A stretch of DNA of 64,000 bases from Aeromonas sp. (GCA_051658125.1 JBOFMA010000139.1:4660-68659); one strand, 5' to 3'. Positions 21,545 through 60,584 are shown, counted from the first letter of the stretch. The notes: generated by a model from the letters alone, not told the origin. Numbers and translations: made by a program.

Positions 21545-21629
21545 GCGAAGGTGGCGGAATTGGTAGACGCGCTAGCTTCAGGTGTTAGTGCCTTCGGGTG
21601 TGAGGGTTCGAGTCCCTCTCTTCGCACCA
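21545..21629 (+). tRNA. tRNA-Leu (CAG)
   Basis: GCGAAGG..CCA, anticodon loop TT-CAG-GT, long variable arm, TTCGAGT T-loop. Confidence 0.98.
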
Positions 21630-21682
21630 TACTGCTCTGCGGTGTTCCGCCACAGATAAATCAAAATTGGAAAATCTAATGT

Positions 21683-21767
21683 GCGAAGGTGGCGGAATTG
21701 GTAGACGCGCTAGCTTCAGGTGTTAGTGCCTTCGGGTGTGAGGGTTCGAGTCCCTCTCTTCGCACCA
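21683..21767 (+). tRNA. tRNA-Leu (CAG)
   Basis: Identical to the first copy. Confidence 0.98.
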
Positions 21768-21832
21768 TGAACTGACATGTAAAAACAGTGCCATGCCCCA
21801 TTGCATGTAAAAGATATGGGAACAATCAGTGT

Positions 21833-21918
21833 GCGAAGGTGGCGGAATTGGTAGACGCGCTAGCTTCAGGTGTTAGTGTCCCACGGATGTGAGGGTTCGA
21901 GTCCCTCTCTTCGCACCA
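21833..21918 (+). tRNA. tRNA-Leu (CAG)
   Basis: Same body as the other copies; variable arm differs (GTCCCACGGAT instead of GCCTTCGGGT). Confidence 0.98.
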
Positions 21919-34991: not shown

Positions 34992-35079
34992 TGGCGGAGG
35001 AGGTGGGATTTGAACCCACGGATGGTCGCCCATCGCCGGTTTTCAAGACCGGTGCATTCAGCCGCTCTGCCACCCCTCC
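34992..35079 (-). tRNA. tRNA-Ser (TGA)
   Basis: Reverse complement GGAGGGG..GCCA, anticodon arm CCGGT-CTTGAAA-ACCGG, long variable arm; 88 nt. Confidence 0.97.
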
Positions 35080-35391
35080 GCAGCAGTGGGCGCATGTTAT
35101 AAAGCCTGAAGTGGCTTGTAAAGCCTATTTTGCTGTAAATTAGCTGTTTGCGATGTGAGTGCTGTTTTTTTGCGCGCCAACGCGTGTTTTTTGTGCAATC
35201 GACGGTCATTTACCTGTAAATTCAGTGCGCTGTATTGCCAGTAATAGCGAGGGTTAAATCGATCAAAGCGCTGATTTATCGTGCTACGCATAAAAAATGC
35301 GAGTTATTGGCATATATAGTCACAGTCAACAGGGCAAAAGCGCTAAACTTGCCCACTATTTTTGTAATACAGTTCACGGTTCATCATCATC

Positions 35392-36417
35392 ATGTCTGAC
35401 TCTTCCCCATTGCGCTTTCCCAAAGGTTGGTTTGCGTTAGCTTCTGTCTATAGCTTTACCGCATTAGCCATTTTGGCTTCAATGATATTTTCGCTGCTGC
35501 TGTTTTTGTCCATCGACAATGATCCGCTAATGCGTTTGCTGTTTGGCGGTTTGGCCATTTTGTTTGAATTTGGCAAATTTTACGTCTGGTACGAGTATGG
35601 CGAGCGCAAAGCGCATGGCAACTTAAGCGGTGCCTTATGGTCGTTGGCCTTCTATATCATTTTGGCGACGATCTCTATCGGCGGCAGTATTGGTGGCATT
35701 AATAGCGCGACTAACAGCGTGCTTAACGCACAGGCGCAATATGAGCGTAAAATCGCGCGTTTTGATCAGCAAATTTTGAGTATTGAGCGGCAAATTAAGC
35801 TCAATGAAGAGGCGGCGCGCAAATATATTGAATTAGAGCGTATTGCCCGTGGCGTGTCGGCAATTCAAGAAGCCAACGCCAAACTGCAGCAGCAACAAGA
35901 TGAGTTGCGCCTGCAGCGCGATGCCACGCCACTCAGCGAGCAATCCTCAGTGCTGGGTTTAATGAGCAGTTTGGCCGATGGCCTAGCGCTGAGCATTGCG
36001 CAGGTGCAATTTATGTTAGTGTGCTTCTTATCTGTGCTACTTGATGCTTTTGGCGCCTTTTTTGTCAGTTTGATCGGTGAAGAGCATCGCTTTCGCCAGC
36101 AATGGCGGCAGCAGCAAGCCGCGTTGGCGGCGGCGGCGCGGCAAGCCGCGCCAGAGGAAGAGCCTTTGCCCTTGCTGGCGATGTCACAAGTTGATCTGCA
36201 GTTAGCGCACAAGGTGCAAACAGCATTAGAGGCGGGCGAGGTTGCCTGTAGCAAACGTAAAGTGGCGCAATATTTTGGCTTAACGCTCGAAGAGGTGGAT
36301 AGCGTGTTTAAATATTTGCTGACGCAAGGTGTGCTGGAGCAGGGCAATAATCGCCACTATTACCTGCAAGCAGAGGTTATGCCGACAAGCGATCTTGGCG
36401 GCGCGCTGGCCTCTTAG
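35392..36417 (+). CDS. Uncharacterised membrane protein: N-terminal TM helices, coiled coil, further TM, C-terminal winged-HTH-like domain
   Basis: Hydrophobic segments at about aa 12-102 and 190-228, heptad-rich region at about aa 105-180, C-terminal SKRKVAQYFGLTLEEVDSVFKYLLTQGVLEQGNNRHYYL. Confidence 0.8.
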   Translation: MSDSSPLRFPKGWFALASVYSFTALAILASMIFSLLLFLSIDNDPLMRLLFGGLAILFEFGKFYVWYEYGERKAHGNLSGALWSLAFYIILATISIGGSIGGINSATNSVLNAQAQYERKIARFDQQILSIERQIKLNEEAARKYIELERIARGVSAIQEANAKLQQQQDELRLQRDATPLSEQSSVLGLMSSLADGLALSIAQVQFMLVCFLSVLLDAFGAFFVSLIGEEHRFRQQWRQQQAALAAAARQAAPEEEPLPLLAMSQVDLQLAHKVQTALEAGEVACSKRKVAQYFGLTLEEVDSVFKYLLTQGVLEQGNNRHYYLQAEVMPTSDLGGALAS

Positions 36418-36482
36418 CGTTCGTATCTGGTAACCCTGCGGCCCATAGCGGCCGCAGGGTTTTATCTGCGGGGCAGAAAAGC

Positions 36483-36511
36483 AAAAAACCCAAACGATAA
36501 ATCGCTTGGGT
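36483..36511 (-). terminator. Terminator of the second tRNA-Ser
   Basis: Minus-strand ACCCAAGCGAT-TT-ATCGTTTGGGT (one G.U pair) followed by a U tract. Confidence 0.8.
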
Positions 36512-36520
36512 CAGAATAAA

Positions 36521-36608
36521 TGGCGGAGGAGGTGGGATTTGAACCCACGGATGGTCGCCCATCGCCGGTTTTCAAGACCGGTGCATTCAGCCGCTCTGCC
36601 ACCCCTCC
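36521..36608 (-). tRNA. tRNA-Ser (TGA)
   Basis: Identical to 34992-35079. Confidence 0.97.
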
Positions 36609-37638: not shown

Positions 37639-38748
37639 ATGCAATTGCTTCGCTCGCGTCTTGAGCTACTCAAAAACCTCATCATTTTAGAAGAGCAAGC
37701 GCTGTTGGCGCTGCAAATGACCCATCTGGCGCCGTATGCTGAGCAATACCCCGCGATCGCGGCGTTAATCGAGGCGATTCATGCCGGCCGCTATGGCCAA
37801 GCGCAGCAGATCACCTTGGATTTTTTGCAGGCACAAACGGGGCTGGTGCGCGCCGATGAAGCGCAAGCGGCGGCATTGGCGTTTGAGGCCAAGCAATTGG
37901 AAAATCAGCTGCAGATCTTGATTGAGCAGCAGGCCGAGCAGCAAGCACGCTTGGATGAATTTAACTTTTTGCATCATCGCGCGTTAAGCCCGCTGCTAGC
38001 CGAGGTGCTGGCGGCGCGGCGGCAGCTGGCTACGGACCGCTTTAGCCTGTTAGGTATGCCACTGCGTGTGCAACATGCGCAATTGGCCCAGCAAATCCGC
38101 GCGTTGCAAGCCCAGCAGGCAGAAATTAATGCTACCTTGGCCAGTTTGGCTAGTAGCCCGCAGTATGCTGAGCGCGCGCAAGCGCAAGAGGATTTTGCCG
38201 CCTTTACGGCCGATAAAGCCAAGGAGCAGGCGCGTTTTGCCAGCCTAGATAGCCTAAGTGACAGCGAATTGCTGGAATTAAAGCGCTTGTATCGCCGCGC
38301 CTGTAAATTGACCCATCCTGATCTGGTCGATGATGCGCTGCGCGCCGAAGCGCACCAAAAAATGGTGGCGGTAAATAGCGCCAAAGAAGCCGGCGATTTG
38401 GCGTTGCTGCGCCAACTGCTGGCTGAATTAGAAAGCGGCCTTTGGCGTCAGCCTGCAGTGCTATTTAGTAGCGCAGATAAATTGCGCCAGCGCATCACGG
38501 CCTTAGAGGCGCAAATTGCCACGCAAACGCAGCACTTGGCCGCGCAGCAAGCCGATGACACCTTGATGGCGATTTTGCATGCTGACGATTTGGCTACCTA
38601 TTTTGCCTCCCAGCGCCAGGGGTTGAGCGAACTGCTCGGCCAATTGCAGCAAGAGCAGCAGACTTTGGCGGGGCAGTTGGCGCACTATCAAGCGCAATTA
38701 GCGGCGTTGCAGGGCAGTTCGGCGTGTGAGGAGGCCGCGTATGAGTGA
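37639..38748 (+). CDS. Coiled-coil protein with an internal J-domain (HPD motif)
   Basis: ELKRLYRRACKLTHPDL..AHQKMVAVNSAK; HPD at aa 226-228 (38314-38322), flanked by long Q/L/A-rich heptads. Confidence 0.85.
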   Translation: MQLLRSRLELLKNLIILEEQALLALQMTHLAPYAEQYPAIAALIEAIHAGRYGQAQQITLDFLQAQTGLVRADEAQAAALAFEAKQLENQLQILIEQQAEQQARLDEFNFLHHRALSPLLAEVLAARRQLATDRFSLLGMPLRVQHAQLAQQIRALQAQQAEINATLASLASSPQYAERAQAQEDFAAFTADKAKEQARFASLDSLSDSELLELKRLYRRACKLTHPDLVDDALRAEAHQKMVAVNSAKEAGDLALLRQLLAELESGLWRQPAVLFSSADKLRQRITALEAQIATQTQHLAAQQADDTLMAILHADDLATYFASQRQGLSELLGQLQQEQQTLAGQLAHYQAQLAALQGSSACEEAAYE

Positions 38749-39523
38749 AGGGGCGAAAACCGCGTTGCGCGTGCAAGCCGCCGAACGCGCGCTGCAAGTT
38801 TTGCCGCAGGCACATCTAGCCAGTGCGCTGCGCGCCAAGCAGTGGGTGCAGTTAACCGACAAATTACTGGCTGAGCGCCGCGGCACCACTACGCCGGCTG
38901 CCCTCTTAGCCACCAAACCGGCTGCGCGCGATTTGCCGCAAACCAGCAGCGATGCGCTGGCTAGCTTGTGCCAGTGGGCCGATGAGTGCCAGATCCCGGC
39001 GCACGTGTTGCCGCGAGATCATGCGGCGCTTGCCGCGCTCACCGTGCTGGATTTTGGTGGTTTAACCGATAGCGAACGGGCGGCGATTACCTATTTGCCG
39101 CCGGCGATTGGCGAGCTGCGCCAGTTGATCAGCTTAAATTTGTGGTCATGCATTCAGCTGCGCGCCTTGCCCGATACCTTGGGTCAGCTCAGCGCGCTGA
39201 GCAAACTCGATTTATCGTTTTGCATCCACTTGTCGGTGTTGCCGCCGAGCTTGGGCCAATTGCAGGGCTTACAAAGTTTGCAGCTGCGCAGCTGCAATAA
39301 CTTAACCGCTTTGCCAGAAAGCATTGGCCAGTTGCAGCGGCTAAAAAGCTTAAACTTGGGCTCGTGCTGGAGCCTGCGCGCCCTGCCGGCCAGCTTTGAG
39401 CAACTGCTTGGGCTGGAGAGTTTAAACCTCACCGCCTGCTGGAGCTTAAAAGTGCTGCCGCAGCGCTTTAAGCAGCTAACGCAACTGAAAATCAAAGCCG
39501 ACCACGCGTTTACTTACCGCTAA
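38741..39523 (+). CDS. Leucine-rich repeat protein
   Basis: ATG 38741 after GAGGAGG, overlapping the upstream stop by 8 nt; six 24-aa repeats LxxLPxxxGxLxxLxxLxLxxCxx. Confidence 0.9.
   Translation: MSEGAKTALRVQAAERALQVLPQAHLASALRAKQWVQLTDKLLAERRGTTTPAALLATKPAARDLPQTSSDALASLCQWADECQIPAHVLPRDHAALAALTVLDFGGLTDSERAAITYLPPAIGELRQLISLNLWSCIQLRALPDTLGQLSALSKLDLSFCIHLSVLPPSLGQLQGLQSLQLRSCNNLTALPESIGQLQRLKSLNLGSCWSLRALPASFEQLLGLESLNLTACWSLKVLPQRFKQLTQLKIKADHAFTYR
39086..39517 (+). repeat. Degenerate 72-bp tandem repeats encoding the LRR units
   Basis: Units start at 39086, 39158, 39230, 39302, 39374 and 39446; the last is partial. Confidence 0.85.
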
Positions 39524-39587: not shown

Positions 39588-40151
39588 TCAGGCAGGTTGC
39601 GCTGCTAGTAGCGCGCGAAAGTGCGCCCAATCAAACGCCGTGCCCGGGTCAGTTTTGCGCCCCGGCGCTATGTCACTGTGGCCGACAATCTGCGCATCAC
39701 CTAACGCCGGATAGGCGGCTTGCAACGCGCACGTGAGCTCGGCCAGGCGCTGATATTGCGCCGCCGCATAGGGCACATCGTCACAGCCCTCTAATTCAAT
39801 ACCAATCGAATAGTCATTACAGGCCGCGCGGCCTTGCCAGCAGGATTGTCCGGCATGCCAAGCGCGCGCGCTAAATGGCACATATTGCACCAACTCGCCA
39901 TCGCGCCGGATCAGGCAGTGCGCCGAGACTTGCAGGTGCGCAATTTCGGCAAAGTAGGGGTGCGCTGCGGCGTCGAGCTGGCCCTGAAACAGTTGATCTA
40001 TCCACGGCCCACCAAATTGGCGCGGCGGCAAGCTAATGCCGTGCACCACGAGCAGGGAAATATCGTTGGGCTCGGCGCGAGCATTGCAGTGCGGCGAGGG
40101 CACATGGCGTGCTTGTGGGCACCAGCCATCAGCAGTCAACGTCAAGGTCAC
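39588..40151 (-). CDS. ampD: 1,6-anhydro-N-acetylmuramyl-L-alanine amidase
   Basis: SPHCNAR, VVHGISLPP, VSAHCLIRRDG, AWHAG, SIGIELEG and GHSDIAPGRKTDPG motifs. Confidence 0.97.
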   Translation of the reverse strand: MTLTLTADGWCPQARHVPSPHCNARAEPNDISLLVVHGISLPPRQFGGPWIDQLFQGQLDAAAHPYFAEIAHLQVSAHCLIRRDGELVQYVPFSARAWHAGQSCWQGRAACNDYSIGIELEGCDDVPYAAAQYQRLAELTCALQAAYPALGDAQIVGHSDIAPGRKTDPGTAFDWAHFRALLAAQPA

Positions 40152-51829: not shown

Positions 51830-51922
51830 GGAGAGGTGGCCGAGAGGCTGAAGGCGCTCCCCTGCTAAGGGAGTATGCGGCTTATACCCGCATCGGGGGT
51901 TCGAATCCCCCCTTCTCCGCCA
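51830..51922 (+). tRNA. tRNA-Ser (GCT)
   Basis: GGAGAGG..GCCA, anticodon arm CTCCC-CTGCTAA-GGGAG, long variable arm. Confidence 0.98.
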
Positions 51923-51931
51923 TTTTCTTGG

Positions 51932-52008
51932 GCGCCCGTAGCTCAGCTGGATAGAGTACCTGGCTACGAACCAGGTGGTCAGAGGTTCGAATCCTCTCGG
52001 GCGCACCA
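51932..52008 (+). tRNA. tRNA-Arg (ACG)
   Basis: GCGCCCG..ACCA, anticodon arm CCTGG-CTACGAA-CCAGG. Confidence 0.98.
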
Positions 52009-52034
52009 TCAAGATGGCATACAACAATTTATGA

Positions 52035-52111
52035 GCGCCCGTAGCTCAGCTGGATAGAGTACCTGGCTACGAACCAGGTGGTCAGAGGTTCGAATCCTCT
52101 CGGGCGCACCA
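52035..52111 (+). tRNA. tRNA-Arg (ACG)
   Basis: Identical copy. Confidence 0.98.
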
Positions 52112-52165
52112 TATTTCAACTTTGTTGCTTATCGTTGATAGCGCGACAGGGTAACAATTTATTGA

Positions 52166-52242
52166 GCGCCCGTAGCTCAGCTGGATAGAGTACCTGGCTA
52201 CGAACCAGGTGGTCAGAGGTTCGAATCCTCTCGGGCGCACCA
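52166..52242 (+). tRNA. tRNA-Arg (ACG)
   Basis: Identical copy. Confidence 0.98.
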
Positions 52243-52245
52243 TTT

Positions 52246-52283
52246 AAAAAAGCTCGCAACTTAACCGTTGCGGGCTTTTTTTT
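52246..52283 (+). terminator. Terminator of the tRNA operon
   Basis: AGCTCGCAAC-TTAACC-GTTGCGGGCT followed by a long T tract. Confidence 0.88.
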
Positions 52284-52552
52284 CGTCTGCATTCGCACGC
52301 GTGCGCAAATTGTATTTGTTGCCATAGCTCTGTTTACTCCCCCTTAAAATCAGCCACCGGCGTGCCGTTACGCGATCAAAGCGTCAGTTTTCGAAAATTG
52401 TGATCGCGCGCTAATAATTAAACTATTCCAAAGTAATCCTCTATTGCTGCATAAATTATGCGAGCGAGGCCGCATTAACCTAGTGAGCAAGACGGCATGA
52501 TGCCTCATCGCCGCCGTGAGCGGAATTATCCGGTAAAGGAATAGAGGATCCG

Positions 52553-53464
52553 ATGAGCATTGACCTATCCCGTTTAATCACAGAAACGCGTAACCCAGCC
52601 AGTGTCGAAATTGACCAGCTCAGCACGCTGGAAATGTTGCGCATCATTAACCAAGAAGACCAACACGTTGCCGTTGCGGTGCAGGCGTTACTACCACAGA
52701 TTGCGCTCGCGGTGGATAAAATTGCCGATGCCTTTCGTTGTGGTGGACGCTTGGTATATATCGGTGCAGGAACCTCTGGGCGTTTGGGTATTTTAGATGC
52801 CAGTGAGTGCCCGCCGACTTACGGGGTGCCCGCATCACAAGTCGTCGGTTTAATTGCCGGTGGTCATAAAGCTATTTTGCAAGCGGTAGAAAACGCGGAA
52901 GATGATGCTGAACTCGGGGCGCAAGATTTGCACGCGCTGCAATTTAATGCCCGCGACGTATTAGTTGGTATTGCGGCCAGTGGCCGCACACCTTATGTGC
53001 TCGGCGCGATGGCTTACGCAAAAAGCCTTGGCGCTACGGTGTGCAGCATTAGTTGCAATCCAGGTAGCCCACTGGCACAAGCGGCAGATATCAGTATGGT
53101 CGCCGTCGTCGGGCCAGAAATTGTTACCGGTTCGTCACGCATGAAAGCGGGAACAGCGCAAAAACTCATTTTAAATATGCTCTCCACTGGCGCCATGATC
53201 CGCACAGGTAAGGTGTACGGCAACTTGATGGTCGATGTCGAAGCGACTAACGCTAAATTGATCGAAAGACAAAAGCGTATCGTGATGGAAGCCACCGAGT
53301 GCACGCGTGCGACTGCTGAAGCGGCGCTGGCCGCTGCAGATAACCACTGTAAAACCGCCATTGTGATGATCTTGTCGGCGCTAAGCGCTCTAGAGGCGCG
53401 CGCCTTATTGGCTAAGCGAGGCGGTTTTATTAGCCAATGTACCGCTGTGGGCACGGCTAAATAA
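52553..53464 (+). CDS. murQ: N-acetylmuramic acid 6-phosphate etherase
   Basis: [54 protein letters not shown] and NLMVDV motifs. Confidence 0.97.
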
Positions 53465-53519
53465 ATAACGACATGGGCGAATCATCGCCCCCTTTCAAAG
53501 TGATGTGATTGGGTGCTGT

Positions 53520-54965
53520 ATGGCGAAAATAACGGATTTAATGATTGGGCAGATTATTACTGCCATCGGTGGGCAGCAGAATATTTTGCACTGCGGCCAT
53601 TGCATGACGCGTTTGCGCTTGAGTTTGGCCGATAGCTTGCACGCTGATCGCGACACCATCAAGCGTATTGCCGGTGTGTTGGGTGTGATTGAAAGTGATG
53701 ACCAGTTTCAAATTGTGCTTGGCCCTGGCAAAGCGCAAACTGCCTGTGAAATGCTCTCCGCCAGCTTGGACAGTGGTGATACTGCAAGCATCCCACACGA
53801 TAATCAGCGTTTAAAAGATGTCGCGAGCGCAAATAAGCAAGCCTTAAAAAGCAAGCAAACCAGTGTTGCGCATCGCTTCTTAGCTAAATTTGCCACTATT
53901 TTCACGCCGCTGATCCCCGGTTTTATCGCTGCGGGGTTGCTGCTTGGGATATCGACATTACTTGAACAAACTTTATTGCCCGCACATGGTGCGGAGAGTG
54001 CATTAGCCGCCATGATTGGCTATATGAAACTGTTCAGTAAGGGTTTGTTTAGTTTTCTGAGTATTCTAATTGGTTTTAATGCCCAAAAAGCCTTTGGTGG
54101 CTCCGGTGTTAATGGCGCGATTTTGGCCTCACTGTTTGTCATGGGCTATAACCCCGACGCTACTAGCGGCATATATTCTGGAATTAATGATTTTTTTGGT
54201 CAAACCATTGATCCGCGAGGCAATATTATCGGGGTGTTGATTGCTTGTATTATTGGCGCGAATGTTGAACGTCAAGTTCGTAAATTTGTGCCAGATAGTT
54301 TAGATATGATACTCACCTCTTGTATCACTTTGCTGATTATGGGGGCGGTTACATTTATCTTGATCATGCCCGTCGGCGTGCAGTTATATAATGCCATGTC
54401 ATGGCTGTTTATTAATTTGAACGGTAATCCGTTTGGCACAGCGATTCTGGCTGGACTATTTTTAATCTCGGTAATGTTTGGTATTCATCAAGGTTTTGTG
54501 CCGGTCTATTTTGCGCTAATGGATGCACAGGGTTTTAATTCACTGTTTCCTATCTTGGCGATGGCCGGCGCCGGCCAAGTCGGTGCGGCGTTAGCATTGT
54601 ATAGCCGTGCTGCGAAAGACTCGTTATTACGTAGTCAGGTTAAAGGCACAATTATTCCCGGTATCCTTGGTGTTGGCGAACCGTTGATTTACGGCGTTAC
54701 GTTACCGCGCGTTAAACCATTTATCACGGCTTGTATTGGTGGTGCTTTGGGGGGCTTTGTGGTTGGTCTGATCGCTTGGTTAGGCTTGCCGGTCGGTTTA
54801 AATACCGTATTTGGCCCCTCAGGTATTGTCGCCTTGCCATTAATGACCTCAGCACAAGGTATTTTCCCCGGCATGTTAGTTTATACCGCAGGCCTCGCGG
54901 TGGCTTATCTTGCCGGCTATATTGTGACGCTACTCTTTGGCTGTAAAGATGTTGATTTAAGCTAA
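53520..54965 (+). CDS. murP: PTS N-acetylmuramic acid transporter EIIBC
   Basis: [12 protein letters not shown] cysteine motif, FGIHQG and [13 protein letters not shown] motifs; follows murQ. Confidence 0.9.
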
Positions 54966-55074
54966 TTTTTAAATAAATGGCGCAGTTGTATTTAGTATGG
55001 TTTTATATTTAATCTAGATTGAGATTAAGCATGACTTGCGCCATATATAACTATTCACCCAATATGAGATTGAT

Positions 55075-56949
55075 ATGAAAAACATCGCTATTTTTGCAAT
55101 GAGCCTCGTGAGCGCTTCTGTATATGCGGCACCGGTTAGTAACGACGTATTGAAAACTTGGTGGCATTCACCGGCAACCTCAGCGGTACAAATTGTTAAC
55201 AATATGTCATTGCGCGAACAAATTGGTCAAACCTTAATGCTTGATTTTCGCGCATGGGGTAAAAATGAAAAAGATGAGCCGCTAGCTCTCACCAAATTGA
55301 ATAAAGAGATCGCCGAGATAATTTATAACTATCGGCTTGGCTCGGTGATATTATTTCGTGAAAACTTGCTCAATACCACGCAGACAGTTGATTTAATTAA
55401 TGCTTTACAAGCTGCACGCAGCAATTTGCCACTGTTTGTGAGTGTTGACCAAGAGGGCGGTTATGTCACGCGCTTGCAAGAAGGCACTGAAATGCCGGGT
55501 AATATGGCCTTAGGGGCCACACGCAATCCAGCTTTAGCGGAATTATCGGGTATGGTACATGGCGCTGAGCTTGCTAGCTTGGGCTTTAATTTTAATTTCG
55601 GTCCAGTAGTTGATGTAAATAGTAATCAAAATAACCCAGTGATAGGTGTGCGTTCTTATTCTGACCGGCCTGAATTGGTCACCACAATGGCTAATAGCTA
55701 TGTAAAAGGCATCCATAAATATAATATTTTAACTTCAGCCAAGCATTTCCCTGGGCACGGTAACGTAGCCGTGGATTCGCATTTTGGTTTGCCATCGGTG
55801 CCTTACTCGGTGCAAGAGTGGCGCCGGATTGATTTACCGCCTTTTGCGCAAGCACTTAAATACGGTGCGGATTCCGTCATGACCGCGCATGTTTCTGTAC
55901 CTCAGTTAGATAACTCACAGTTGACGACGTTAAAAGGCGAAAAGATGACTACGCCAGCGACGTTATCAAAAAAAATCATCGATGGGGTGCTGCGTCAGCA
56001 GCTTAAATTTGATGGTTTGGTATTAACCGATGCGATGGATATGGGTGCAATTTCAAGCAATTTTGACATGAACTGGGCGGTAGAGACGGCATTAAAAGCA
56101 GGCGTAGATATTGCTTTAATGCCGATCCCGATATGGGATGCGGCGGCGGTTGGAAAATTAGATAAGCTGTATACCCATCTCATAAGCCAAGCAGATAAAG
56201 ATGAAGATTTGCGTGAGCGTATTAAGCAATCCGCGCAGCGTGTAGTGTTGGCTAAGTTAACTCACCGCATTGATGGCATGGCAAAAGATAGCGCAGTAGC
56301 TAAAACCATCGTCGCTTCTTTACAGCATAAAAAGCTCGAAGATATGGTATCGGAAAATGCGATAACTTTGATTAAGAATGATGCGGTATTGCCGTTTGTA
56401 TTAAAAGAAAATAGCAATATATTGGTTATTTCCGATGAGCAATCACGTAATGACCTGATAATTAAGCACATTAATGGCTTGGTGAATGAGACCGCGTTGA
56501 GCGCGATTAACCTGGACAGTGCTAAAGTCGCATTAATGGGCAACGATTTGTCTACAGACACCTTACAGGCAAAAATAGCGCAAAGTGATTTGATTGTGTT
56601 AGCGACATATAACTTAGGTAAAGACCCACTTAACGCGCAAAAGATTATTGATGCGGCAAATATGGCGCAGAAAAAATTAGTGGTGATTGCGACGCGCAAT
56701 CCTTATGATATTGCGCACTTGCGTAATGTTAACGCTAATTTGGCCATCTATGGTGTTACGGGATTTGACATCACAAATAACAATAGAAATAGCTTGGAAG
56801 CCAATATTAAGGCTGGCGTGAAAACACTATTTGCAGACCCGGTAACGCAGCAGCCATTTAATCGTCCGCTAGGGAAGTTACCTGTCAATATTAAATCAGC
56901 TGATGGTAGTAAAGTGTTGTATGCCATTGATCACGGTTTGACATTTTAA
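55075..56949 (+). CDS. nagZ: Secreted two-domain GH3 beta-N-acetylglucosaminidase (NagZ, Bacillus type)
   Basis: Sec signal MKNIAIFAMSLVSASVYA, VDQEGG.V.RL, RSYS, KHFPGHG..VDSH (His/Asp dyad), MTAH and LTDAMDM (nucleophile); C-terminal domain with TRNPYD. Confidence 0.88.
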   Translation: MKNIAIFAMSLVSASVYAAPVSNDVLKTWWHSPATSAVQIVNNMSLREQIGQTLMLDFRAWGKNEKDEPLALTKLNKEIAEIIYNYRLGSVILFRENLLNTTQTVDLINALQAARSNLPLFVSVDQEGGYVTRLQEGTEMPGNMALGATRNPALAELSGMVHGAELASLGFNFNFGPVVDVNSNQNNPVIGVRSYSDRPELVTTMANSYVKGIHKYNILTSAKHFPGHGNVAVDSHFGLPSVPYSVQEWRRIDLPPFAQALKYGADSVMTAHVSVPQLDNSQLTTLKGEKMTTPATLSKKIIDGVLRQQLKFDGLVLTDAMDMGAISSNFDMNWAVETALKAGVDIALMPIPIWDAAAVGKLDKLYTHLISQADKDEDLRERIKQSAQRVVLAKLTHRIDGMAKDSAVAKTIVASLQHKKLEDMVSENAITLIKNDAVLPFVLKENSNILVISDEQSRNDLIIKHINGLVNETALSAINLDSAKVALMGNDLSTDTLQAKIAQSDLIVLATYNLGKDPLNAQKIIDAANMAQKKLVVIATRNPYDIAHLRNVNANLAIYGVTGFDITNNNRNSLEANIKAGVKTLFADPVTQQPFNRPLGKLPVNIKSADGSKVLYAIDHGLTF

Positions 56950-57043
56950 GTTGCTTTAATCTAAAGCAAATACATTGGTCGCCAAGTTGTGGCTTGGTGG
57001 CTAATAAAATAGCTGACCAAATAAAATTAATCATGCAAAGGAA

Positions 57044-58171
57044 ATGAATATGCTTTGTTCATCTTTTACCCTGCCTACACAGGTAGCTTTTCGAGTATCG
57101 TTGCTAGCTAGCTTATTGGCCGCAGGTTATGCTCAGGCGGAAGAAAATAACGTACTTGCACCGACTGACCAAGGCAGTGATGTGCAACAGTTAGAGCAAG
57201 AGCTTTCTTCGGTAAAGCAAGAGCTTACGGCGCTAAAAAACAAGCCAAAATGGAATGTTGAGGCTTATCTTGGTACAGAGCAAGAAATTAACAGCGATGA
57301 TGATTGGAAATTTCAAAACGGTTCTTTGGCGACATCGCCTTATCTGGGCGCGTTCATTTATCAAGATGGATCGCCATGGATGTATGACGTTCAGTTTTTA
57401 AAAACATATATTGATCACAATAGTGAATACAACCGTAATCGCTTTAGTCTTGGCGTCACTCGAACGATGCCATTTAATATTGAAGGTAAATCTGGCAGCG
57501 TGAAAATGCGCGTGGGTTATCGTAATGATAGCTATCACTGGGGCTCGATTAATAAGGCGTCACTGGCCGCGCCAGATTATAAAGGTGACCTACGTAAAGG
57601 CGAAGAGCGCAATGAAATTTGGCTGCGTCCAGCGCTATCTTATAATTACAGCGCCAACCTAAATTTGATGGCAGCATTTTCATTCCGGATCATCGACCGG
57701 GAGTTAGATTATGCGCGTGCGCAAGGTGAGTATGGCGTGACTACGCGTGACTGGAGTACGATTGATGAGCATCTGCTCGGCGGCACCTATAAATTTAATG
57801 CCAGTAGCTCGTTATCGGCTTATTATTTGTATGTTAGAGAAAAATTAGTGCGCACCATGGATAATGAGGAGCATTTTGCTTGGGTTACCTATCGCCACAA
57901 GATCCCGAGTGGACAAACTATCGCTCCGTATGTGCGTTATGCATTAGCCGATAGTAAAACCTATTATTTTAATTCAGACAAAGATGAAATTAATTTAAAG
58001 CGCATGGATCGCACTCGGTTTGGATTGCAGTTAACGCAGCCAATTTCTCCGGCGACTTCGTTGATGTTTGATATTTATTATCGCCCAGAAACGGTTAAAG
58101 ACCGCAATGCGGCTACGACGACGGATAATAATTTCATCTTGTGGTACATGGAATTAAAGCATAAGTTTTAA
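57044..58171 (+). CDS. Outer-membrane beta-barrel porin (OmpG/KdgM-like) with an N-terminal coiled coil
   Basis: Signal peptide ending AGYAQA, alternating amphipathic strands rich in Y/R, terminal Phe (MELKHKF). Confidence 0.75.
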   Translation: MNMLCSSFTLPTQVAFRVSLLASLLAAGYAQAEENNVLAPTDQGSDVQQLEQELSSVKQELTALKNKPKWNVEAYLGTEQEINSDDDWKFQNGSLATSPYLGAFIYQDGSPWMYDVQFLKTYIDHNSEYNRNRFSLGVTRTMPFNIEGKSGSVKMRVGYRNDSYHWGSINKASLAAPDYKGDLRKGEERNEIWLRPALSYNYSANLNLMAAFSFRIIDRELDYARAQGEYGVTTRDWSTIDEHLLGGTYKFNASSSLSAYYLYVREKLVRTMDNEEHFAWVTYRHKIPSGQTIAPYVRYALADSKTYYFNSDKDEINLKRMDRTRFGLQLTQPISPATSLMFDIYYRPETVKDRNAATTTDNNFILWYMELKHKF

Positions 58172-58230
58172 TGTTTAATTAGTGTGCGGCGCTATGTGTG
58201 TCATACGCGCCGAGCAAGGAGTAATGAAAA

Positions 58231-59046
58231 GTGAAAAAAATCTTGTGGTCGATATTATTTGCCTGTTCGGCAAACGCCTACGCTGATTTGCCGGCGCTAT
58301 CGAGTGCGCAATTAAATGATATTGGTGAGCGTATTTATAAAAATGAGGCGGCAGGCAAGCGCGAAAATCTAATATTTTGGGGTGAGCATGAGGCCTTTCC
58401 TTCACTCGGAATTGCCCATTTTATTTGGTATCCGGCTGGGCAAACGGGGCCTTTTGAGGAGATGTTTCCTGCCCTAGTCGAGCGCTATAAGCAAAAAGGC
58501 ATGGCATTACCGAAATTATTGCAAACCCATGCCCATGCGCCTTGGCCAGATCGTGCGGCTTTTTTAGCGGCAAAGAACAGCCCTGAGGTTTTGGAGTTGC
58601 TGGCATTTTTAGATAGCACTCGTGCCGTGCAGGCTGAGGCGGTGTACGCCCGTTTAGAGGGCGTGTTAGGACGCTTAATTGCGGCTAGTGCTAAACCAGA
58701 GCAGGTAAAAACGCAGTTTAATCGAGTGGTACAAGATAAAAATGGTGCTTATGCCTTGATTGATTACATCAATTTTAAAGGCGAGGGGGTTAAGGCCAGT
58801 GAGCGCTTTAATGGTAAAGGTTGGGGCTTATTGCAAGTGCTAGAAAATATGCATGGCACCGCGCAAGATGCTACGGTCATGCGTGAATTTGCCGGTAGTG
58901 TGATCGTGGTATTGGCACAGCGCTCGTTAAATGCCGCGCAAGACTCCCGTTTTCAGGCCGATCCTCACGCCAAGCAGCGCGTCGAAACCGGCTATATGCC
59001 GGGCTTTTCCCGCCGCGCTCTGACGTATATGGGCATTGGCTTGTGA
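58231..59046 (+). CDS. Uncharacterised secreted protein, putative lysozyme/chitosanase-like fold
   Basis: Signal peptide MKKILWSILFACSANAYA; IYKNE(39)..W.EHE..SLGIAHFIWYP, LIDYINFKGEG and GWGLLQVL motifs. Confidence 0.7.
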   Translation: MKKILWSILFACSANAYADLPALSSAQLNDIGERIYKNEAAGKRENLIFWGEHEAFPSLGIAHFIWYPAGQTGPFEEMFPALVERYKQKGMALPKLLQTHAHAPWPDRAAFLAAKNSPEVLELLAFLDSTRAVQAEAVYARLEGVLGRLIAASAKPEQVKTQFNRVVQDKNGAYALIDYINFKGEGVKASERFNGKGWGLLQVLENMHGTAQDATVMREFAGSVIVVLAQRSLNAAQDSRFQADPHAKQRVETGYMPGFSRRALTYMGIGL

Positions 59047-60428
59047 GGCGCGCTCGCGCAGTAACGCTGGCCAGTGCTTGGCTAGCGGCGCTAAGTTGTG
59101 CTCCGGCATTGGCACAAACGCTCAATGCACCGCTAGCCGCGGCGCCGATACAGCTGGGTGTGGATCGTAGTGATGTTTATGGCCCATTGCTGAAAGGTAA
59201 ACGGGTGGGCTTGATGGTGAATCAAAGCTCGCGCGATAGCCATGGCGTACATACCATCGATAAATTGCTCAGTGAGCAACAACGCTATGGCTTTACCGTG
59301 ACCAAGCTGTTTTCTGTCGAGCATGGTTTACGTGGCAAAGCCGAAGCGGGTTATGGTGACAAGGCGAATTATCGCGACCCTAAATCGGGTTTACCGGTAG
59401 TGAGCCTGTATGGTAACGATGCTAATGGTCAATCGCGCGCACAGCCGCGTCCTGAGCAGTTAGATGATGTCGATGTCATCGTATTTGACTTACAAGATGT
59501 GGGTGTGCGCTTTTTTACTTACACCATCTCGATGCATCGGATGCTGGAGAGCGCGCAGGCGGCGGGTAAGGCGTTTATGGTTTTTGATCGCCCCAACCCC
59601 AATGGTGGGCAGGTGTATGGCCCGCTTCTTACGGAGGGCTTTGTCTCTGGCATTGGTATTCATCCGTTGCCGATGGTGCACGATCTAACCACTGCTGAGT
59701 TTGCTGCCATGATCAATGGCGAGTTATGGCTAAATGGCCTTCAGCATGCAGACAATCAGTGGCAGCAGTTTGGGCAGGTGCAATACCAATTGCCGGCAGC
59801 GGATTTGCAGTTGATCCCAATGCAAGGTTATCAGCGTGGACAACGTTATGTCTTGCCGGTACCTCCGTCACCCAATTTAGCTAATGAACTTGCTGTGCGT
59901 TTGTATCCATCGCTGGGCTTATTTGAAGCCACCAGCGTGAACATGGGGCGTGGTTCGGACTATCCGCATCAGCAAGTGGGTTTTCCTGATCCGAAGATGC
60001 AAGTTAACGTGCGTTATTCGGTGGACGCCAAACAAACGGACTATGGCTGGCCACAAGGTGGCAAGACGGTCTATGGGCAGAGTTATCGGCCGGAATTAGG
60101 CGGTGCGGCACCGGCTACGTTGCAAGCGTCGATTACGCCGTTTGTGACGTGGTGGTTTAAGTTAACGCAAGCCGGTTACCAAGGTGCGCTGGATGCTGCG
60201 CGTGAGCCTGACTATTTGCAGTACGCACAAACGCACTATGTGATCCGGCCACAATGGTTAGGCAAGGTGGTGGGCGATGATTCGCTGCTTCAGGCGTTGA
60301 CGCAAGTTGATGTCACACAAGCAACGGTGGCGCACACCGTTGCGGCCATCGAACAAAGTTGGCAGCCGGCGCTGCAGAAATATTTGCAACAACGGCAACC
60401 CTATCTGCTCTATCCACCGGCGAAATAG
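59043..60428 (+). CDS. namZ: Exo-beta-N-acetylmuramidase NamZ family (DUF1343, GH171)
   Basis: Signal peptide, VGLMVNQSS, FSVEHGLRG, SLYG, FDLQDVGVRFFTY, DRPNP, H.LT.AE, PSPNL and EAT..N.GRG motifs; GTGA overlap with the upstream gene. Confidence 0.88.
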   Translation: MRRARAVTLASAWLAALSCAPALAQTLNAPLAAAPIQLGVDRSDVYGPLLKGKRVGLMVNQSSRDSHGVHTIDKLLSEQQRYGFTVTKLFSVEHGLRGKAEAGYGDKANYRDPKSGLPVVSLYGNDANGQSRAQPRPEQLDDVDVIVFDLQDVGVRFFTYTISMHRMLESAQAAGKAFMVFDRPNPNGGQVYGPLLTEGFVSGIGIHPLPMVHDLTTAEFAAMINGELWLNGLQHADNQWQQFGQVQYQLPAADLQLIPMQGYQRGQRYVLPVPPSPNLANELAVRLYPSLGLFEATSVNMGRGSDYPHQQVGFPDPKMQVNVRYSVDAKQTDYGWPQGGKTVYGQSYRPELGGAAPATLQASITPFVTWWFKLTQAGYQGALDAAREPDYLQYAQTHYVIRPQWLGKVVGDDSLLQALTQVDVTQATVAHTVAAIEQSWQPALQKYLQQRQPYLLYPPAK

Positions 60429-60469: not shown

Positions 60470-60496
60470 ACCGCTCAGCGCTTGAGCGGTTTTTTT
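60470..60496 (+). terminator. Terminator closing the murQ-namZ cluster
   Basis: ACCGCTCA-GCGCT-TGAGCGGT followed by a T tract. Confidence 0.8.
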
Positions 60497-60584
60497 ATGT
60501 CGCGCGGTTATTTCTTTGGCTAGTCACTGATCGCGGGCGTGGTTTTCGGTATTATCGAGGCTCATTTGCCAAAGGTGGGTATGT

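Follow-up and report, generated by a model that had tools for sequence, protein, structure and literature searches.

The 64,000-nucleotide stretch of Aeromonas sp. DNA analyzed here (GCA_051658125.1, JBOFMA010000139.1:4660-68659; the window) carries between positions 52553 and 60428 a cluster of six intact open reading frames (ORFs), murQ, murP, nagZ, ORF4 (a channel gene), ORF5 and namZ, all on the plus strand (Table 1). We consider it probable that this locus is a catabolic cluster with which a divergent member of the Aeromonadaceae scavenges peptidoglycan glycan fragments, i.e., oligosaccharides of N-acetylglucosamine (GlcNAc) and N-acetylmuramic acid (MurNAc). A first-pass annotation of the same DNA had described six co-directional genes closed by a terminator, among them a Bacillus-like two-domain NagZ and an outer-membrane channel, with neither murR nor an amidase in the cluster. 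The ORFs and the hairpin with its T-run lie as described, the gene identities hold on family scores far beyond chance, on the match to the structure 3bmx and on a barrel model, and tblastn over the 64 kb for MurR agreed with the lack of murR. By inspection of the sequences, four of the six products (the GH3 protein, ORF4, ORF5 and NamZ) carry signal peptides with basic, hydrophobic and AXA-type segments.

Table 1. Features of the murQ-namZ cluster and its borders, in window coordinates
Feature	Coordinates	Strand	Assignment or evidence
Upstream non-coding region	52243..52552	+	tRNA-Arg array terminator (~52250-52285) and putative murQ promoter/operator
murQ, MurNAc-6-phosphate etherase, cytoplasmic	52553..53464	+	TIGR00274 equivalog, 431 bits vs cut-off 302
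murP, MurNAc phosphotransferase system (PTS) EIIBC	53520..54965	+	NF007152 equivalog, 842 bits vs cut-off 516
murP-nagZ spacer	54966..55074	+	109 bp, AT-rich, possible internal promoter
nagZ, exported two-domain GH3 exo-beta-N-acetylglucosaminidase, YbbD type (predicted)	55075..56949	+	PF00933, 299 bits
ORF4, predicted outer-membrane channel, ~14 strands	57044..58171	+	AlphaFold beta-barrel, pLDDT 86
ORF5, exported, possibly lipidated at an LFAC motif, all-alpha	58231..59046	+	unannotated family; AlphaFold pLDDT 87, pTM 0.82
namZ, exported GH171 exo-beta-N-acetylmuramidase (predicted)	59043..60428	+	PF07075, 210 bits; PF20732, 52 bits
Intrinsic terminator closing the cluster	60470..60497	+	hairpin 60470-60490, 9-bp stem, 5 GC pairs, then TTTTTTT

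MurQ, which carries SIS and GKRP_SIS_N domains, falls within the MurQ family, and MurP, with its EIIB and EIIC domains (PF00367 and PF02378) and the phospho-Cys motif HCMTRLRL, falls within the MurP family; MurP has no IIA domain. For murP, whose ORF begins with GTG 53505, the likelier start is ATG 53520 because the NF007152 match begins at ORF residue 6. The GH3 protein aligns over its full length with Bacillus subtilis NagZ/YbbD (3bmx/4gyj, E 1e-121, residues 34-623). As judged from its sequence, it has every feature of NagZ-type GH3 enzymes of the YbbD subgroup, namely the KH[FI]PG[HL]Gx4D[ST]H motif (here KHFPGHGNVAVDSH at residue 223), an Asp nucleophile (region LVLTD319), two domains and a secretion signal, MKNIAIFAMSLVSASVYA, which ends before the residues AP. 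The start of namZ overlaps the stop of ORF5 (GTGA), and the predicted NamZ aligns with a Bacteroides structure (4jja, E 7e-56), possesses both the N- and C-terminal domains, and retains FSVE93HGLRG and GR303GS, whose conserved Glu and Arg (E93 and R303) would be equivalent to Glu92 and Arg279 of B. subtilis NamZ, going by the description of that enzyme (PMC8054146). The presence of NamZ in gamma-proteobacteria (Yersinia) has been noted before (PMC8054146), and NCBI naming now calls these gamma-proteobacterial proteins NamZ. Elsewhere in the window, at 39588-40151 on the minus strand and upstream of aceE-aceF-lpdA, a 187-amino-acid Amidase_2 protein without a signal peptide is AmpD-like, so that this genome has, besides the NamZ cluster, the canonical amidase that recycles anhydro-muropeptides in the cytoplasm.

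ORF4 matched nothing in Pfam or NCBIfam and belongs to no curated sequence family. In its model, a signal peptide and an amphipathic helix near the N terminus (residues 43-65) precede a barrel, and the sequence ends in a C-terminal Phe. DSSP assigned 16 strand segments to the model, two pairs of which resemble kinked single strands. Foldseek aligned it with OmpG (2x9k/2iwv, E 1e-11, TMt 0.8) and CymA (4v3g, E 4e-9), with TMt ranging from 0.6 to 0.8; as modeled, the barrel is of the OmpG/CymA-type fold. A reading of the channel as anion selective, suggested by invariant Arg residues, was dropped since invariant acidic residues are equally numerous.

Among 5.8 billion proteins the ORF4 family forms only 34 clusters, and its members always adjoin peptidoglycan-sugar genes. 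The first-pass annotation had called for a survey of conservation; a profile scan of 185,579 GTDB species genomes, with gene content typed by tblastn, yielded 29 channel loci, and the best identity to the window porin among these species-representative loci is at most 56%. The nagZ, channel and namZ genes are contiguous, with the channel in the middle, in all 24 loci from Enterobacterales, each of which also has the NagZ motif. These loci derive from eleven Yersinia species, Serratia, Providencia, Moellerella and Rahnella, the remainder being from Klebsiella sp., Cedecea, Atlantibacter, Kosakonia and one metagenome-assembled genome; in 15 of them murP-murQ and murR lie directly upstream of the triad. 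The other five loci are from Fusobacteriaceae/Cetobacterium, where the channel gene is followed by an ORF5 homologue and is divergent from a module composed of a cellobiose-type PTS (IIB/IIC/IIA), MupG, a BcrAD-type kinase and an RpiR regulator; a GHL10 protein (Cwp19/DigH-type; PF02638, 189 bits; 5oq2, E 1e-73) is encoded between channel and ORF5 homologue in three of the five. NamZ and MupG represent two alternative, mutually exclusive MurNAc routes (PMC8054146). Because the channel family is linked to one or the other of them in two phyla, strong guilt-by-association argues that the channel is specific for peptidoglycan sugars, and this linkage between genes gives the best support for uptake of wall fragments as the function of the locus. 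The dedicated channel proposed in the first-pass annotation has in this way gained ground, from its fold, from its invariable place in the Enterobacterales triad and from its connection with MupG in Fusobacteriaceae.

Several of the loci surveyed have features of their own. GHL10 directly upstream of an ORF5 homologue, near a cellobiose-type PTS, MupG and a kinase, was seen in L036 (8453-12125), L031, L033 and L043 (1581-4302); this arrangement, from Cetobacterium/Fusobacteriaceae and one metagenome contig, looks like a second kind of peptidoglycan-glycan utilization locus. The namZ-GH3 pair of Aeromonas cavernicola (L096, 209-11233) has neither channel nor ORF5 next to it and sits immediately beside a type I-F CRISPR-Cas operon (Cas3, Csy1-4). 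Genes for a phage-type integrase, Fic, AlpA and DUF3987 directly follow namZ in one Yersinia frederiksenii strain (L010, 11859-18321), and rpoD-dnaG occupy that place in another (L011), indicating that an island has integrated beside the triad in L010.

The first-pass annotation had treated ORF5 as a bystander; it proved to be the most informative unknown of the cluster. Its GTG start at 58231 is preceded by a strong AAGGAG Shine-Dalgarno sequence, and its product had no match in Pfam (E<=10) or NCBIfam and none among PDB sequences by phmmer or profile search. Homologues fall into 3799 clusters at 90% identity and at least 1089 clusters at 50%. Fusion partners among 34 multidomain representatives of the family include GH3 (12), Ser/Thr kinase (4), LysM (3), Amidase_3 (1) and PP2C (1); the GH3 partner is NagZ-type and N-terminal, and in the kinases a single transmembrane helix puts the ORF5 domain outside the cell. 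Two such kinases (P0253 and P0299) have a single membrane-spanning helix and end in an extracytoplasmic ORF5-type domain, a layout like that of PASTA kinases. The ORF5 gene lies between channel and namZ in this lineage, and beside the channel, GHL10 and the MupG module in Fusobacteriaceae. Stand-alone and fused members alike share invariant residues N38, E39, H63, D178 and K183 and a nearly invariant E54. In the model, E39 appears to close a helix (residues 25-39), after which short strands (47-68) carry the motif S-L-G-I-(G/A)-H-F. Altogether, three lines, gene neighborhood, domain fusions and conserved polar residues, tie the ORF5 family to peptidoglycan. Among other neighborhoods, an Opp-type oligopeptide ABC transporter is encoded after one ORF5 homologue in L095 (7001-14960), and another homologue lies 1.6 kb from an LD-carboxypeptidase (Peptidase_S66) in L004 (8001-11578); each is a weak link to muropeptide recycling.

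T4-type lysozymes of family GH24 bear the signature E11...T26-I-G-I-G-H31. When 95 ORF5-family sequences were aligned with 25 GH24 sequences by hhalign in local mode, calibrated by 150 column permutations, the score was 27.8, compared to a permuted mean of 13.6 and maximum of 22.0 (P 0.002), at a probability of 14.5%; the alignment paired the Glu and helix of ORF5, its S/T-L/I-G-I-G-H motif and a C-terminal RW...NR with their GH24 counterparts. Since GH24 was chosen after the motif had been noticed, we treat this match as suggestive only. That choice and the low hhalign probability weigh against a lysozyme-like ORF5, as does the ORF5 model itself, which found no Foldseek match at E<=0.001 in PDB or BFVD and hence none to any lysozyme; the top TM scores (~0.29) belonged to three T4-lysozyme-fused receptors and were not counted as evidence. 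Also on the negative side, many homologues stand in contexts without a peptidoglycan connection, and the contexts of P0055, P0118, P0021 and P0102 were uninformative or at best weakly suggestive. On balance, we give about an even chance to the view that ORF5 is a glycan-cleaving enzyme of the lysozyme superfamily.

Alternatively, and with a lower probability, ORF5 might be non-catalytic, a periplasmic glycan binder or sensor that traps oligosaccharides or reports to a regulator as PASTA or LysM domains do. The use of the domain as the extracytoplasmic C-terminus of Ser/Thr kinases, its further occurrence with PP2C, TPR and LysM, the failure to match a catalytic fold and the missing murR at this locus would all suit such a protein. 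What makes us doubt it is the invariance of E39, H63, D178 and K183, with E54 close behind, across stand-alone and fused members, together with a predicted helix-end E39 and subsequent beta hairpin that are typical of lysozyme-type active sites, and the fact that the commonest fusion partner, GH3, is an enzyme. It is very unlikely that ORF5 is the missing MurNAc-L-alanine amidase, standing in for AmiE and opening the glycans to NamZ. In favor, no other exported protein of the cluster in this lineage lacks an assignment, and ORF5 fills the slot between nagZ and namZ where pathway logic needs an amidase; but its sequence resembles neither Amidase_2 nor Amidase_3 nor the beta-lactamase-type amidases, a member of the family already has an Amidase_3 domain fused to it, a zinc site is improbable with one invariant His only, and Enterobacterales clusters do without ORF5. 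Returning to a lysozyme-type ORF5, we propose tentatively, at somewhat less than an even chance, that it founds a large family of extracytoplasmic peptidoglycan-glycan domains with a divergent lysozyme-type fold, which would cleave or sense denuded or MurNAc-terminated glycans alongside NagZ, would also serve as a PASTA-independent sensor of Ser/Thr kinases, and together with the channel would define a proteobacterial and fusobacterial "peptidoglycan utilization locus."

In the pathway that we propose, small, mostly peptide-free GlcNAc-MurNAc oligosaccharides released from lysed neighbors, by host lysozyme or with shed wall would cross the outer membrane via the ORF4 channel, and NagZ and NamZ, acting alternately, would shorten them to monosaccharides once in the periplasm. 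MurP would then import and phosphorylate MurNAc with the help of a IIA protein encoded elsewhere, and MurQ would convert MurNAc-6-phosphate to GlcNAc-6-phosphate and D-lactate. ORF5 would act in the periplasm on the same substrates, shortening or presenting the glycans, most likely as a lysozyme-superfamily enzyme that cleaves them or else as a glycan-binding or -sensing module; peptides would be removed by housekeeping periplasmic amidases or before uptake. The extracellular endo-enzyme step of the first-pass annotation has no gene in the cluster unless ORF5 fills this role. It has been reported that denuded glycans are fully degraded in vitro by NagZ and NamZ (PMC13627109). As for the earlier suggestion that the cluster feeds on the peptidoglycan of other cells, comparative genomics supports scavenging as the probable function; the substrates and the direction of flow we infer, and the outside origin of the substrates we derive from gene content.

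Several observations weigh against this pathway. NamZ enzymes studied to date need peptide-free MurNAc, and B. subtilis also needs AmiE, yet no periplasmic amidase is encoded among the six cluster genes. There is no local regulator either, as tblastn with a relative's MurR (E<10) found no MurR homologue or remnant in the window. NagZ-NamZ pairs occur without the channel in A. cavernicola and Vibrio metschnikovii, so the channel is not indispensable, and none of the public sequencing runs searched for the locus carried it.

Some of these observations would equally suit the main rival, in which the locus recycles the wall of its own cell: NagZ and NamZ would cut down glycan strands that the division amidases have denuded in the periplasm, MurP and MurQ would recover the resulting sugars, and the channel would be incidental or would let in monomeric MurNAc alone. 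The enzymes are predicted to be periplasmic, the peptide-free glycans that NamZ needs arise in the cell's own periplasm, the cluster has neither an amidase nor an extracellular endo-enzyme, and the two channel-free pairs fit as well; with AmpD encoded in the window, the locus would be a second, parallel route. This rival, however, leaves unexplained why the channel should be contiguous with NagZ and NamZ in each of the 24 Enterobacterales loci and be linked in Fusobacteriaceae to MupG and a PTS for uptake, and a wide pore of the OmpG/CymA type, as modeled, would suit oligosaccharides. We therefore regard recycling of the cell's own wall as unlikely to be the function of the locus, and it may coexist with scavenging. 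It is scarcely credible that chitin oligosaccharides or host glycans are the target instead: chitobiose is also a substrate of NagZ-type GH3 enzymes, and aeromonads degrade chitin, but MurP, MurQ and NamZ, each assigned at equivalog or family level, belong to families specific for MurNAc, the channel has no relationship to chitoporins (ChiP ranks 42nd in the fold search), and its alternative partner MupG is also MurNAc-specific.

The nearest relatives of the cluster are on three metagenome contigs (L001-L003), which encode proteins 69-86% identical to those of the window in the same six genes, followed by a convergent murR. At the window locus, the adjacent RpiR/MurR gene (HTH_6 and SIS domains) that marks a MurR-regulated murQP operon is missing. 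The first-pass annotation was right about this absence, which is nevertheless local: L001-L003 have a murR, and so do most Enterobacterales loci, where it lies between murQP and nagZ. Given that the cluster of the closest relative has murR, the gap looks like a peculiarity of this genome, in which the module appears to have lost its regulator gene. Upstream of murQ there is a promoter-like site at 52391-52418 with a TGTGA half-site close by, and the block ATTATGCGAG...CATTAA and the motif GCATGATG are both conserved in the relative L001. Judging from Enterobacterales, in which two separate units diverge around murR, the murP-nagZ spacer may carry a second promoter that splits a murQP unit from a nagZ-porin-ORF5-namZ unit.

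The flanks of the cluster are core chromosome, with recA, recX, alaS, csrA, tRNA-Ser and three tRNA-Arg genes upstream and fabR, yijD and ssb downstream; namZ and fabR are only 156 bp apart. RecA groups with Aeromonas RecA proteins at 90% identity, and FabR and YijD are singletons at that level, from which the host is, on sequence clustering, a divergent member of the Aeromonadaceae. The GC content at third codon positions (GC3) is 0.42-0.54 in the cluster genes versus 0.63-0.67 in flanking core genes, and the module of L001 sits at a site that is non-syntenic with the window; these two grounds suggest that the module was horizontally acquired. Between 53500 and 58500 the GC content falls to 0.41-0.45, with GC3 of 0.42-0.46 in murP, nagZ and the channel gene, and the intermediate GC3 of murQ and namZ (0.52-0.54) gives the cluster a mosaic composition.

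Tandem tRNA arrays are found at 21545-21918 (three tRNA-Leu(CAG)) and at 51830-52242 (tRNA-Ser(GCT) and three tRNA-Arg(ACG)), the second stopping 310 bp short of murQ. A classical tRNA-linked island was considered and rejected, as the cluster has neither an integrase nor, on its downstream side, a direct repeat of the tRNA-Arg 3' end. At 34992-36608, two minus-strand tRNA-Ser(TGA) genes with identical anticodon surround a plus-strand ORF of 341 amino acids (35392-36417), which has a coiled-coil region and predicted membrane segments, matches nothing in Pfam and may be an insertion between duplicated tRNAs. A plus-strand gene for a 265-amino-acid leucine-rich-repeat protein (38726-39523) overlaps the end of a 369-amino-acid ORF without a Pfam match (37639-38748, plus strand); this pair, unusual in content, is placed between a DsbA/ScsC-like gene and ampD.

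In guts, sediments and biofilms, much organic carbon and nitrogen is stored as peptidoglycan. To our knowledge, Bacillus and Tannerella, the latter a MurNAc auxotroph, are the only bacteria for which a dedicated route for eating the walls of other cells has been described. If this reading is true, the coupling of a conserved channel to NagZ and NamZ would provide a defined and testable uptake step for Proteobacteria, and one that is common to them and to fish-gut Fusobacteriaceae. ORF5 offers a tractable handle on a family that is fused to NagZ, LysM, amidase and Ser/Thr kinases, and it may turn out to be a previously unknown glycan hydrolase or sensor of cell-wall fragments. More speculatively, trimming of muropeptides in the periplasm could alter the signals for beta-lactamase induction or host immune recognition.

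Among known systems, the same logic is found in the murQ-murR-murP-amiE-nagZ-namZ operon of B. subtilis (PMC8054146), which has the same MurQ, MurP, two-domain YbbD-type NagZ and NamZ, and in which the exo-enzymes act beyond the cytoplasmic membrane and supply a MurNAc PTS and etherase. The window cluster lacks AmiE and murR and adds an outer-membrane channel and ORF5, and its enzymes are predicted to be periplasmic, whereas those of B. subtilis are in the medium or wall. The salvage cluster of Tannerella forsythia and Bacteroides resembles it in being Gram-negative and in having a NamZ with a signal peptide, and periplasmic scavenging of peptide-free glycans by NamZ has been proposed for Tannerella (bioRxiv 10.1101/2021.12.02.470905). 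Uptake across the inner membrane differs, with MurT and AmpG followed by the kinase MurK in that cluster and a PTS here; its NamZ proteins are only ~37% identical to that of the window, and it has no OmpG-like channel or ORF5. The Enterobacterales loci have orthologous NagZ, channel and NamZ (50-56% identity) in the same order, but differ in the absence of ORF5, the presence of murR and a divergent murQP, which is co-directional in the window; Providencia has the triad only, and Yersinia, Serratia, Rahnella and Kosakonia have it with murP-murQ/murR. The design is not unique, then, as judged from these genomes: Yersinia, Serratia and Providencia commonly have the triad, in most cases together with murR-murQP. 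Given this distribution and the Tannerella NamZ precedent, the first-pass annotation overstated how exceptional the arrangement is for a Gram-negative bacterium. Its analogy with a polysaccharide utilization locus of the Bacteroidetes type stands as a likeness in logic only, because a SusC-like transporter and a SusD-like lipoprotein are absent among the six genes.

The individual parts have relatives as well. OmpG and CymA are 14-stranded monomeric oligosaccharide channels encoded in sugar-utilization operons. As found in Escherichia coli (OmpG) and Klebsiella oxytoca (CymA), they are the best structural matches to ORF4, at a sequence identity of 12-14%, and ORF4 has an extra N-terminal helix of ~25 residues. 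The alternative route for MurNAc disaccharides, represented by MurP-MupG of Staphylococcus aureus (PMC6262408) and by the Fusobacteriaceae loci in which channel, GHL10 and ORF5 genes accompany PTS-MupG, employs a cellobiose-type PTS and the cytoplasmic 6-phospho-muramidase MupG where the window has a periplasmic NamZ; the Fusobacteriaceae MupG loci nonetheless share the channel and ORF5 families with the window. The nearest recognizable candidate relatives of ORF5 are the T4-type GH24 lysozymes, with their helix-end Glu, S/T-L/I-G-I-G-H motif and C-terminal RW...NR, from which it differs in having no PF00959 match, in being ~90 residues larger and in not conserving the position of T4 Asp20. 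We found no description of the channel, the NagZ-porin-NamZ triad, its sharing with Fusobacteriaceae or the ORF5 family in the literature searched. What appears new at this locus, on these searches, is the conserved OmpG-like channel within the triad, the sharing of that channel with Fusobacteriaceae and, chiefly, the ORF5 family.

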